Source: a virus
Taxonomy: Duplodnaviria; Heunggongvirae; Uroviricota; Caudoviricetes
IMG/VR virus record: IMGVR_UViG_2778261035_000005
Length of the DNA stretch: 64,000 nucleotides
Direction: 5' to 3' (one strand)
Below, piece after piece: positions 11,657-33,819 of this stretch (within the stretch, counting starts at the first letter, position 1; each line of letters opens with the position of its first letter). The notes beneath the pieces are model-generated. The model had not been told where the DNA came from. It searched no databases and was given only the letters and a program-made list of their open reading frames with translations. The position numbers were made by a program, and so were the translations under genes.

Positions 11657-11792
11657 ACCACAAACCGCCAGCGTATTGTTCTGCGATGGAGCTGGGCCTA
11701 TCTATATCAGCAATAATGATGTGATGACCGAAGAAACCGAACGCCAAATCCTTTTTCACAATACGATGGGAGAGAGAGTTTGCGGTTGGTGA
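11577..11792 (+). CDS. Rz1-like o-spanin lipoprotein
   Basis: Starts inside the Rz gene in another frame and extends past it; signal peptide with lipobox ISGC. Confidence 0.5.
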   Translation: MRRAIKYVRKMLLPFIVSCMISGCVIKPQTASVLFCDGAGPIYISNNDVMTEETERQILFHNTMGERVCGW

Positions 11793-11823
11793 TGCGAAGT
11801 TCCCCTCACTTGAGGGGAGTACA

Positions 11824-12345
11824 TTATTCTTCGAACAATTTTTCGATAGATTTTGTAGGATAGAACAAAGAACGCTCGTTGTTACCAACCAGCTGGATAA
11901 AGCCTAAACTTTTATAAAACGCCTTGGCTTTGTCATTTAACGCCTCAACGAAAAGTCCATGAATGCCTACAGCAAGAGATGCATTGTACACAACGCGCAT
12001 TGCATGTGTTACAAGCATTGAGCCAAATCCTTGACCTTGAAGGGACTTGTCCAAAGCCAGCCTACCCAAAGTAACACTTGGAACATTCCGATAAGGTACC
12101 TTCTTTTGCTGGCTTCTTGAAGGTAAGGACTCCTTTTCAAAGCAGCTACCTGACAAAGTGTAATACCCTAACACTTTTGGTCTGCCTTCTTTCGTGCAAA
12201 GCACATAAGCGCGAAGAATTTTTCCCTCATGCTGCCTTTTTAAGTGGTTGGTTAAAAAGGCATTTAGTGATTCTTCACCGCAATCAAAACCATTCAAATC
12301 ATAATCTTTCTCTCCAGAGAAAATTTCTATCTTTATATTATCCAC
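11824..12345 (-). CDS. GNAT-family acetyltransferase toxin (TacT/AtaT/KacT-like)
   Basis: 173 aa with GNAT-toxin layout (FDCG...YYTLS...VTLGRLALD...QGFG...FY...GF); GTG start 7 nt after the stop of the upstream antitoxin gene. Confidence 0.8.
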   Translation of the reverse strand: MDNIKIEIFSGEKDYDLNGFDCGEESLNAFLTNHLKRQHEGKILRAYVLCTKEGRPKVLGYYTLSGSCFEKESLPSRSQQKKVPYRNVPSVTLGRLALDKSLQGQGFGSMLVTHAMRVVYNASLAVGIHGLFVEALNDKAKAFYKSLGFIQLVGNNERSLFYPTKSIEKLFEE

Positions 12346-12352
12346 GAGTAAA

Positions 12353-12622
12353 CTACTCCATGCTTTTCAGACGATCAGCAGCTCGTTTCAGCTTGTCGTT
12401 CGGTGCCGGAGGATTGCTTATAGCGTCCATAACCAGATTCCAGGATTCTTCATTCAGAACTAGTCTACGGTGTTGCTCTATAACTTTCACGGCACGTTCA
12501 GATGCACTGCTAACCATAAACTGAGTAATGCTCTGGTTAGACATTGCGGCAGCTTCCTCGATGATGCTTTTATCGTCATCGGTTAATCTCAAATCGATGC
12601 GCTGCTTTTTTAGTGCTGACAT
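12353..12622 (-). CDS. DUF1778-type ribbon-helix-helix antitoxin (TacA/AtaR-like)
   Basis: 89 aa immediately upstream of the GNAT toxin on the same strand; ATG at 12622 preceded by AGGAGG. Confidence 0.75.
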   Translation of the reverse strand: MSALKKQRIDLRLTDDDKSIIEEAAAMSNQSITQFMVSSASERAVKVIEQHRRLVLNEESWNLVMDAISNPPAPNDKLKRAADRLKSME

Positions 12623-12632
12623 GTATTCCTCC

Positions 12633-12660
12633 TGATGGCCGTGATGTAGGAAGGCCATCA
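12633..12660. promoter_or_regulatory. Palindrome TGATGGCC-N12-GGCCATCA, candidate toxin-antitoxin operator
   Basis: Perfect 8-bp inverted arms overlapping the RBS/promoter region of the antitoxin gene. Confidence 0.4.
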
Positions 12661-12890
12661 ATCTCCTCTGTTCAAACTGAGTTTTCGACTCAAAAATTAC
12701 TTTAAAAGGCTATAGCCCATTACGTGTGCATTATCAAATTGTGTACGGCATATCACCGTACTTGTAATATAGAGGTCATTGTTACTTTTTTCAACAGACA
12801 AATACAAGCTATGATTGCCAATTGTTAATCACAACCTACCATTTAACCTTTACACCGCAGCCGTAGGCATTTAGGCTATATCACATATAA

Positions 12891-12908
12891 GAAAACAAGT
12901 TGTTTCAG
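12891..12908 (+). promoter_or_regulatory. Conserved motif GAAAACAAnTTGTTT, copy upstream of parA
   Basis: One of four near-identical copies, each 12-33 bp upstream of a start codon. Confidence 0.45.
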
Positions 12909-12940
12909 ACAATAATAATAGACGCAAAGGGAACTCTCCA

Positions 12941-13609
12941 ATGACCAAGATCTTTGTGGTTGGCGGCACAAAGGGCGGGCCTGGCAAATCCACCGTTGCC
13001 CAGCAAATTGCCGTTTGCCTGAAAGTCAAAAAGAAGAAGAAGGTTTATATCACTGATATAGATATTCAGCGCACGACAACAAGCTGGTGTGAAGACCGTC
13101 GACAGAACGAAGACCTTGAGCTGATTCCTTTTGCATACGTTCAGGATGACATCATTAAGCACCTAAAATCGCTTCAGGGTAGAGCTGAGTTTGTAGTGGT
13201 AGATGCTGGTGGCTTTGACTCCGAAATTCAGCGACAAGCGATGCTGATGGCCGACGTTATCATTATCCCGCTTCGTCCTAAGCGTCGTGATTTGAAATCT
13301 CTGCGTGACATCGATCCTATTATCGACAATGTTCGTAATGTAAACGATAAAGTGAAGGTCCGCGCGGTCATGAACCAGTGCCCGGCTTTGCCATCACAAG
13401 TGTCTCGCATTCTGGCGGCTAAAGAGATTGTCGAGACGTTTGGCATCGAGTCTGCGCCAGTCAATCTATATAACCGCAACGTCTACGATGATGCGGAAGA
13501 GTCTGGTCGTTCTATCTTTGAAATGACCGGTAGCGAGCGCGACAAAAAGGCGGAAGCCGAGTTTGAAGAATTTGTAGATTATCTGTTGAGTCTGGAGGAA
13601 GAAGAATAA
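12941..13609 (+). CDS. parA: ParA-type partition ATPase
   Basis: Deviant Walker A GGTKGGPGKST at the N-terminus; about 220 aa; followed by a small centromere-binding-type gene. Confidence 0.85.
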   Translation: MTKIFVVGGTKGGPGKSTVAQQIAVCLKVKKKKKVYITDIDIQRTTTSWCEDRRQNEDLELIPFAYVQDDIIKHLKSLQGRAEFVVVDAGGFDSEIQRQAMLMADVIIIPLRPKRRDLKSLRDIDPIIDNVRNVNDKVKVRAVMNQCPALPSQVSRILAAKEIVETFGIESAPVNLYNRNVYDDAEESGRSIFEMTGSERDKKAEAEFEEFVDYLLSLEEEE

Positions 13610-13968
13610 TGTCCATGAAAATGGGTGACCTAGCAAAGCGCAAAGAGCCTGATGCACCGGCCAAGAACACAACTCCTTTGCGCCAACCAGTCAGACCACA
13701 GGGACGCCCGACTCGTGGCAAAGAGAAAATTAAAAGCCGCACAATGTCACTGGAAGACGAATACTTCGAACTGCTGGAGATGATGAAGTTCATCCCTCGC
13801 TTCGAGAAATTCACCCGCTCTGATGTGATTCGTGCTGCTATTTTCCATCTTGCGGAGAAGACACCGCAGGAAATCGAGGACATCGTAAAGCTGAACGAGG
13901 CGATCACAGCTGCCGATGTCACGATGCGTACCGATGAAATTAAACGCGAGTTGATGAAGAAAGGTTAA
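13609..13968 (+). CDS. ParG-like small centromere-binding protein
   Basis: 119 aa with basic disordered N-terminus and ribbon-helix-helix-like C-terminus; start overlaps the parA stop. Confidence 0.5.
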   Translation: MSMKMGDLAKRKEPDAPAKNTTPLRQPVRPQGRPTRGKEKIKSRTMSLEDEYFELLEMMKFIPRFEKFTRSDVIRAAIFHLAEKTPQEIEDIVKLNEAITAADVTMRTDEIKRELMKKG

Positions 13969-32488: not shown

Positions 32489-32583
32489 TTAGAATAGCCT
32501 TAATGATAAGTAATCACTTACGATATTTGATGGTATATTTATATAAGAAGTTGAAAGCTCATTAGAAAACAAAGGAAAAACGC

Positions 32584-33819
32584 ATGACTACTACTGCACT
32601 GCAAAATGAAAAAAATCCTTCTGATTACCTTGTTTGCAAGTGGTGCGGAAAATCATTTCACTATTTTAAGTCCCATGTAGCCAATGGTAATTGCGAGGGC
32701 ATTCCTGAGTCAGTAAAAGATGCCGATCCTGACACCGTACTGAAAATGTACACAACGCAGTTTCCAGATGAGCCAACGCTATCGAAAAAGGCACTTGATG
32801 CAATTCAAGCTAAACGTGCCGAGCAAACAAGCGAAATGGCCAAATCATCTGGCGTGACCAATAGCCCAGGCTATACAGGCACAGTTGAGTACAAGACAGA
32901 TCTGGTCGCAGCTCACGAACTGCTAAATGTAACGGTGAAAGAACTCGGAACAAAACGTGGGACGCCGCTCATGGTTAGCGTCAACGTCAATACGCCGTTT
33001 CCAGAGTTCGTTCCAGAAGTGAAGAAGGGATACGTATATGGCGACTTCGAACTGATCAAAGACATTTTCATGATGCTTGAACTTGGCATACCAGGCTATT
33101 TGTGGGGTCATGCAGGAACAGGCAAATCTTCATTGCCTACACAACTATGTGCTTTGCTCAATCGTCCGTTAATCCGTGCCCAACATACAGCATCAATGGA
33201 AGAGGCTCATGTTACGGGACAAATTCTGGCGCGTGATGGCTCTACGTATTTCGAGCCTGGCTTGCTTGCGCTCGCAATGAAGCATGGCTGGGTTTACCTC
33301 GCGGATGAATACGACTTTGCGTTTCCACAGATTCTTGGCGTGTATCAGCCAGTGCTGGAAGGTGAAGCGTTGGTCATCAAAGAGGCGACTCCAGAATGGC
33401 GTCGCATTACTCCGCATGAACGGTTTGCTTTCATTGGCACTGGCAACACGAACGGATCTGGTGATGAAACCGGCTTGTACCAGGGTACAAACATCCAGAA
33501 CGCCGCTAACTTTTCGCGTTTTGGCATCGTTTCGAATGTGAAATACATGAGCAAAGAGGCAGAGATCAGCATGTTGATAAATGCTGGCATCGTGGATGAA
33601 TACGCTGAAAAGATGGTTAAGTTTGCCGGTATCGTTCGCGATGGATACGAAGAACACCTGATCAGTCAGCCGATTGGCCCTCGTGAACTTTTGTTGTCGG
33701 CCAAGATTGGAATGATGCGAGGCGACTTTGTGACAGGTATTGAGCGTTCTTTCATTAACAAACTCCCTTCAGCTTCTGCGCAAGCGGCACGTGAAGTTGT
33801 TCAAAAAATATTTGGTTAA
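32584..33819 (+). CDS. CobS/MoxR-like AAA+ ATPase
   Basis: Walker A GHAGTGKS, Walker B LADEYD; Cys-rich N-terminal extension; follows the conserved RBS context. Confidence 0.7.
   Translation: MTTTALQNEKNPSDYLVCKWCGKSFHYFKSHVANGNCEGIPESVKDADPDTVLKMYTTQFPDEPTLSKKALDAIQAKRAEQTSEMAKSSGVTNSPGYTGTVEYKTDLVAAHELLNVTVKELGTKRGTPLMVSVNVNTPFPEFVPEVKKGYVYGDFELIKDIFMMLELGIPGYLWGHAGTGKSSLPTQLCALLNRPLIRAQHTASMEEAHVTGQILARDGSTYFEPGLLALAMKHGWVYLADEYDFAFPQILGVYQPVLEGEALVIKEATPEWRRITPHERFAFIGTGNTNGSGDETGLYQGTNIQNAANFSRFGIVSNVKYMSKEAEISMLINAGIVDEYAEKMVKFAGIVRDGYEEHLISQPIGPRELLLSAKIGMMRGDFVTGIERSFINKLPSASAQAAREVVQKIFG

Follow-up and report, generated by a model that had tools for sequence, protein, structure and literature searches.

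The closest described relatives of the locus studied here are type II toxin-antitoxin modules in which a GNAT acetyltransferase toxin is paired with a DUF1778 antitoxin of the ribbon-helix-helix (RHH) class, namely AtaR-AtaT of Escherichia coli O157:H7 (PDB 6gts, 6ajm) and KacA-KacT of Klebsiella pneumoniae (PDB 5zgn, 5xun). The locus lies in a 64,000-nucleotide stretch of viral DNA (IMG/VR record IMGVR_UViG_2778261035_000005), hereafter the window. From its sequence, the locus is an operon of the AtaRT/KacAT clade of type II toxin-antitoxin systems, inserted in an accessory slot of an SSU5-like phage-plasmid from E. coli. The module is another allele of a known, structurally solved family that is already annotated in public records. 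The only non-routine element is a conserved structured leader, absent from the characterised ataRT and kacAT operons. The palindrome located next to the antitoxin gene, which the initial annotation had read as an autoregulatory operator, is the third hairpin of this leader and is predicted to act in RNA, not as a protein-binding DNA site; the putative operator lies further upstream.

AtaR-AtaT resembles the window module in its gene order, in the small gap between the two genes and in the presence of a GTACGG-N7-CCGTAC operator beside the promoter. Unlike the window module, it is chromosomal (between livJ and panM), has a leader of 26 nt without the three hairpins described below (H1 to H3), and starts its toxin with ATG, whereas the window has a structured leader of 120 nt and a GTG toxin start. 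KacA-KacT shares with the window the antitoxin residues R8, D10 and R12, and the operator half-sites separated by a 7-nt AT-rich spacer; however, it is also chromosomal, with a 30-nt leader (locus L087). The toxin2-antitoxin4 repressor and the ratio-dependent control of KacA-KacT would be expected in the window module too. TacA-TacT of Salmonella (PDB 5fvj, 7ak7, 6g96) and the plasmid-borne KacAT4 have the same GNAT and DUF1778/RHH architecture, but are much more distant from the window toxin (E = 1e-12 to 1e-19) than AtaT (1e-80). KacT4 has a GUG start in common with the window toxin (PMC9431474); kacA4 overlaps kacT4 by 14 bp, whereas the window genes are separated by a 7-nt gap.

The two open reading frames (ORFs), read from the window sequence, are co-oriented on the minus strand and 7 nt apart, as initially described. 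Searches with phmmer against PDB chains agreed with Pfam on a GNAT-toxin/DUF1778 (TacA1)-antitoxin type II module. The toxin gene (11824-12345, minus strand) encodes 173 aa from a GTG start, and homology makes its product a probable GNAT aminoacyl-tRNA acetyltransferase of the AtaT/KacT clade. Its best matches were AtaT (6gts_A, E = 7.8e-80; also 6ajm and 6ajn) and KacT (5zgn_C, E = 3.6e-75), TacT-like chains being matched far more weakly (1e-12 to 1e-21), and Pfam returned GNAT domains. In the alignment with O157 AtaT, which was ungapped and displayed 69.4% identity, the acetyl-CoA-binding and catalytic residues are both conserved. These are G108 and Y144, respectively, the latter corresponding to Y145 of KacT (PMC7595197). 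The segment Q103-G-Q-G-F-G108 is present, and Y85, R95, F30, L27 and L136 of AtaT are also retained. A perfect 11-bp inverted repeat, TGCCTTTTTAA-N8-TTAAAAAGGCA, was observed within the toxin coding sequence (12233-12262) and is longer than the palindrome near the antitoxin gene. It was not retained as a functional element: it is lost even in alleles of approximately 89-97% DNA identity and in other family members, and is probably incidental.

The antitoxin gene (12353-12622, minus strand) encodes 89 aa from an ATG, and its product is an AtaR/KacA orthologue with an RHH N-terminus and a toxin-wrapping C-terminus. Pfam assigned it to TacA1 (PF08681, DUF1778; E = 5.7e-26, 79 of the 80 profile positions covered), and the best PDB chains were KacA (5zgn_A, 6.6e-42) and AtaR (6ajm_C, 1.3e-40), with identities of 80% to KacA and 76% to AtaR. 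The stretch from K5 to L13, including R8, D10 and R12, is invariant across five family members. In KacA, these three residues contact bases and are needed for DNA binding (PMC6698736). The Shine-Dalgarno (SD) sequence of the antitoxin, GGAGGA (12627-12632, minus strand), stands 4 nt before the ATG.

A sigma-70 promoter was predicted on the minus strand at 12766-12794, with a -35 hexamer TTGAAA (12794-12789), a 17-nt spacer and a -10 hexamer TATATT (12771-12766). With 10 of 12 matches, it is the best promoter-like site in 11700-13000, and no other good sigma-70-like site lies upstream of the antitoxin. Between 12766 and 12622, no second minus-strand promoter was detected at 9/12 matches or better. 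Four nucleotides after the -10 hexamer begins a putative operator of the KacA/AtaR type, GTACGG-TGATATG-CCGTAC (12743-12761, minus strand). The motif GTACGG-N7-CCGTAC is unique in the window, where 0.05 occurrences would be expected by chance even with one mismatch allowed. Of 97 distinct upstream regions, derived from 122 loci across Enterobacterales, 95 contain it with no more than one mismatch. The resulting consensus was gTTGAAa-N17-TATAAT-N4/5-GTACGG-(A/T)7-CCGTACA, with an operator spacer of 89% A+T, and its promoter part is retained in 83 distinct homologous loci, with constant spacing to the operator. The same operator motif precedes ataR of O157 and kacA of K. pneumoniae (L087). The DNA co-crystallized with KacAT, AAATGTACGGTTATTAACCGTACATGA, has this GTACGG-N7-CCGTAC form with a 7-nt AT-rich spacer and is reported to span the kacAT transcription start (PMC6698736). 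By homology to KacAT and AtaRT, we infer that 12743-12761 is the autoregulatory operator of the window module, and it probably covers the transcription start. This site is located outside the span considered initially (11824-12660), about 100 bases upstream of the palindrome. In two viral contigs (L044:1329-1379 and L045:1330-1380), a perfect GTACGG-N7-CCGTAC is followed 13 nt on by a degenerate copy, GTACAnnnnnnnGCCGTAC; these tandem operator-like sites precede the same three-hairpin leader.

The palindrome itself consists of TGATGGCC (12660-12653) and GGCCATCA (12640-12633) separated by 12 nt. As initially annotated, it is a perfect 8-bp inverted repeat. It abuts the antitoxin SD and occurs once in the window; the promoter that it was supposed to overlap was not found there, the nearest good site being that at 12794-12766. 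The operator-to-ATG distance is 120 nt in the window, against 26 nt in ataRT of O157 and 30 nt in kacAT of K. pneumoniae, and ranges from 45 to 222 nt in other long-leader relatives. Therefore the palindrome falls within the leader (12623-12742, minus strand), a 120-nt segment predicted to be transcribed and to form three stem-loops. H1 (12707-12718) reads GGGC-UAUA-GCCU and H2 (12678-12692) UGAGU-CGAAA-ACUCA. H3 (12633-12660), which is the palindrome, consists of UGAUGGCC, a 12-nt loop UUCCUACAUCAC and GGCCAUCA, and ends directly at the SD. All three hairpins, on the minus strand like the genes, were recovered in single-sequence folds, with the SD and the AUG unpaired.

Three hairpins with differing stem sequences were also found in Enterobacter soli, Huaxiibacter, Lelliottia, Salmonella, Mangrovibacter, Morganella, an E. 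coli plasmid and two viral contigs. A covariance model (R1) was built from the aligned leaders of nine of these relatives, none of them of the window type, with the three helices written in. This model matched the window leader over its full length (12620-12742, minus strand; 51.6 bits, E = 4.7e-13), the next match having an E-value of about 0.1-0.7. In the 15-sequence model alignment, 87.4% of the cells pair and double-sided changes are present in 14 of 19 pairs, values that none of 500 shuffles reached. When the pairing partner was slid by one to three columns as a control, pairing fell to 21-42%. Compensatory change was seen in every helix: 4 of 5 pairs covary in H1, 4 of 5 in H2 (77% of cells paired) and 6 of 9 in H3 (92% of cells paired). 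Moreover, G·U cells outnumber A·C cells by 29 to 8 overall and by 15 to 3 in H3, an excess expected of a sense-strand RNA and not of a DNA palindrome. The loop UUCCUACAUCAC is identical in E. soli (L065), where the stem is formed by UGACCGCCC and GGGUGGUCG. Finally, 45 distinct long leaders were examined, unrelated types among them: 42 have a stem whose end lies 7-15 nt ahead of the ATG, and the segment preceding the SD folds better than shuffles (mean z = -1.6). We are inclined to regard the leader as a genuine, previously uncatalogued structured motif. No description of such a leader in GNAT-RHH systems was found in the literature searched, and an Rfam 15 scan of 12250-12950 gave best E-values of 0.19-9.7, far below gathering scores.

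Several other observations were made on the leader. The second match of R1 in the window (32498-32586, plus strand; 13.8 bits, E = 0.13-0.66) ends at AGGA...ATG and is probably due to chance, and a match of the hairpin to the Rfam family CRISPR-DR23 (E = 0.84) is at chance level. A leader peptide was rejected, the short ORFs MHT* and MGYSLLK* not being conserved in other genera, as was an intrinsic terminator or attenuator, there being no U-run after H3. A pseudoknot between the H3 loop (UUCCU) and the SD (AGGAA) was dismissed by reasoning, as 2 nt would have to span the 8-bp stem. Pairing of loop and SD over 5 bp instead would be much weaker than the stem of 8-9 bp, and in the predicted folds the SD is unpaired. 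In Klebsiella/Kluyvera-type phage-plasmid alleles, the stretch of leader from the operator to the pre-SD hairpin is filled by variable-number tandem repeats (L035:1352-1448 and L047:1299-1447, also L036-L042, L046 and L062). One type consists of 7/14-nt AAAACTG units in about 6-12 copies, another of AACCTGAAACCTAG repeated 10.6 times, and the operator-to-ATG distance in these alleles extends from 121 to over 205 nt. Such repeats might serve as protein-binding iterons or as spacers prone to slippage.

Matches to plasmid and phage records identify the replicon, which the initial annotation had called a phage-plasmid, as an SSU5-like phage-plasmid of E. coli. A 1.2-kb region carrying the module matches pWP4-S18-ESBL-07_2, a non-mobilizable E. 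coli plasmid of 110 kb, at 100% identity, and Escherichia phages Cyrano and CMS-2020a at 97-99%; the Cyrano record already labels the toxin "KacT Acetyltransferase-type toxin". The module is flanked on one side by a holin-endolysin-Rz/Rz1 lysis cassette, on the plus strand and convergent with the toxin gene, and on the other by a divergent parA encoding a MipZ/ParA-type ATPase. AtaRT-type modules of several alleles, with antitoxin identities of 83-100%, occupy this parA/Rz slot in 48 viral or phage-plasmid loci.

These features can be assembled into a mechanism. Transcription would proceed from the sigma-70 promoter (12794-12766), starting in or beside the operator (12743-12761). Judging from the homologous KacAT and AtaRT, a toxin2-antitoxin4 complex would place two RHH beta-sheets into the two operator half-sites, and repression would be set by the toxin:antitoxin ratio (conditional cooperativity, as in the homologues). 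The mRNA would carry the 120-nt leader with its three hairpins, H3 ending exactly at the antitoxin SD. H3 would most likely determine how stable the antitoxin mRNA is or how readily ribosomes reach it, for instance by holding the strong SD free of pairing, although this step is weakly inferred. At the gene junction (12346-12359, minus strand), the toxin SD GGAG (12359-12356) overlaps the last antitoxin codons and stands 10 nt before the toxin GTG, the antitoxin stop TAG (12355-12353) and the 7-nt gap (12346-12352) lying between them. An ATG with GGAGGA for the antitoxin, against a GTG with a distant GGAG for the toxin, should favour antitoxin excess, and the short gap would permit coupled re-initiation. 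GTG or TTG starts the toxin in 104 of 119 family loci, and the GUG start is known to reduce KacT4 output (PMC9431474). Free toxin, as its homologues suggest, would halt translation by acetylating charged tRNAs at the amino group. In cells losing the phage-plasmid, the expected outcome is post-segregational growth arrest, and thereby stabilisation of the replicon.

Structured 5' leaders such as the 5' untranslated region (UTR) of ompA set mRNA stability and ribosome access. The window leader resembles the ompA 5' UTR in its length (about 120-130 nt), in its discrete hairpins, one of them beside the SD, and in its unpaired SD; this likeness is a lead only, and there is no sequence relationship between the two. 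A more ambitious version would make the leader an undescribed cis-regulatory RNA that adds post-transcriptional feedback to operator repression by sensing the translational state produced by the toxin. For example, antitoxin translation or mRNA decay might be tuned by scarce initiator or charged tRNA, or by low ribosome availability. We consider this version a long shot.

The role of the module could also be different. It might serve chiefly to protect against other phages, by abortive infection or exclusion, and not as a plasmid addiction system, although the two roles are not mutually exclusive. Prophage toxin-antitoxin modules often defend, and the slot is a variable accessory-gene site in which SSU5 carries other genes. 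However, neither protein matched any PADLOC model (no family in PADLOC-DB 2.0 at E <= 0.01), the gene pair stays beside the partition operon in the 48 loci mentioned above, and no defence phenotype is reported for AtaRT/KacAT in PMC6698736, PMC9431474 or PMC7595197. A mainly defensive role thus appears unlikely.

A second alternative concerns the palindrome, which could be a chance or neutral sequence without function, only the upstream operator being relevant. Perfect 8-mer inverted repeats with spacers of 3-20 nt are indeed common, the window containing 113 of them where shuffles contain about 19. The folding energy of the window leader is unexceptional, and the 11-bp repeat within the toxin gene is likewise not conserved. 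We nevertheless judge the palindrome to be real because of its conservation and covariation, not because of its length. A hairpin abutting the SD is kept at the same place across genera with compensatory substitutions, its loop sequence being conserved and its stem variable, and a pre-SD hairpin recurs in unrelated leader types. A functionless palindrome is therefore improbable.

It is still harder to maintain that the palindrome is the DNA operator through which the antitoxin regulates its own expression, as initially annotated. A perfect palindrome is present directly upstream of the antitoxin ribosome-binding site, and type II antitoxins often bind palindromes close to their own start. Nevertheless, the DNA-reading strand of the antitoxin (K5-L13) is invariant in the family and reads GTACGG half-sites 7 nt apart, whereas the palindrome arms are unrelated to GTACGG and are separated by 12 nt. 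These arms differ among homologues in which antitoxin residues 5-13 do not change, yet they remain complementary, including through G·U pairs, which are mismatches in DNA. Moreover, the region of the palindrome lacks a predicted promoter and a canonical operator is already present upstream of it. This reading is very improbable, and the KacA-type site at 12743-12761 takes its place. Finally, a longer antitoxin starting at the in-frame ATG at 12658 (101 aa; predicted N-terminus MAFLHHGHQEEY-), which would make the palindrome coding as in the 306-nt antitoxin gene of the Cyrano record, is hardly credible: ATG and TTG codons at 12658 and 12661 do open a 101/102-aa ORF, but a 1-nt loop insertion in the close alleles L006 and L034 breaks the extended frame, the solved AtaR and KacA begin at the downstream methionine, this methionine is preceded by the GGAGGA SD, and PGAP annotates a 270-nt gene.

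Several points weigh against the explanation that we prefer, i.e. an AtaRT/KacAT operon with an upstream operator, an RNA hairpin in a structured leader and post-segregational arrest. First, the window leader is thermodynamically ordinary (z = +0.56 against shuffles). Second, the covariation alignment was fitted to the model structure, and its sequences are related and its cells non-independent, so that independence is overstated. Third, in an unfitted MAFFT/RNAalifold analysis of 13 leaders, the window-type H3 was shifted by one column and only six H3 pairs were obtained, in the shifted register; RNAalifold on this alignment gave the operator palindrome and part of H3 only. The role of the leader in antitoxin mRNA stability or ribosome access is a guess, and post-segregational killing is plausible from the context, the pair lying next to parA, in divergent orientation, on a phage-plasmid that is non-mobilizable. 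The toxin departs from AtaT at contacts with the tRNA acceptor helix (R40E, N41G, R71K, K77R, K79Q and A26S). The substrates of AtaT are Gly-, Trp-, Tyr-, Phe- and initiator Met-tRNA (PMC7595197), and with the changes R40E, N41G, K77R and K79Q the tRNA targets of the window toxin may differ from them. Since these contact residues differ, the target spectrum of the window allele can be given in kind but not in detail. Altogether, we assign the preferred explanation a probability of roughly 80%.

The surroundings of the module showed further features. A GC-rich hairpin (11799-11820), located where the lysis cassette and the toxin gene converge, is terminator-like on the plus strand and lacks a U-run on the minus strand. 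The cargo carried between Rz1 and parA is variable. In SSU5 (L002:2797-3953, equivalent to window 11800-12900), the module is replaced by two unrelated hypothetical genes of 140 and 233 aa, neither with a Pfam match. At least 80% of the 1.2-kb query was covered in only 143 of 597 matching plasmids, and low-coverage phage records match only its parA-proximal end of about 67 bp. Directly after parA, a 119-aa ORF (13609-13968, plus strand) is labelled "RelE/ParE putative toxin" in the Cyrano record and has no Pfam match. Judged by its position, it is more likely to be a small centromere-binding partner of the ParA ATPase.

The module itself is routine; its probable contribution is to the persistence of a widespread family of E. 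coli and Klebsiella phage-plasmids in their hosts. Phage-plasmid and chromosomal ataRT (for example L004:556-574) have identical operator half-sites and antitoxin DNA-reading residues; therefore, transcriptional cross-talk and cross-repression between copies would be expected. Among 5426 complete E. coli genomes, ataRT-like matches were found at 1626 chromosomal places (about 30% of genomes) and 299 plasmid places, and no more than about 71 genomes have two copies. If the copies on phage-plasmid and chromosome do influence each other, this could bear on both addiction and anti-addiction. The structured leader leaves the kind of system unchanged. However, at least seven genera have one leader type in common, conserved with covariation, and conditional cooperativity alone had been considered sufficient to account for regulation in this family. 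The long leaders thus point to an unstudied post-transcriptional layer.

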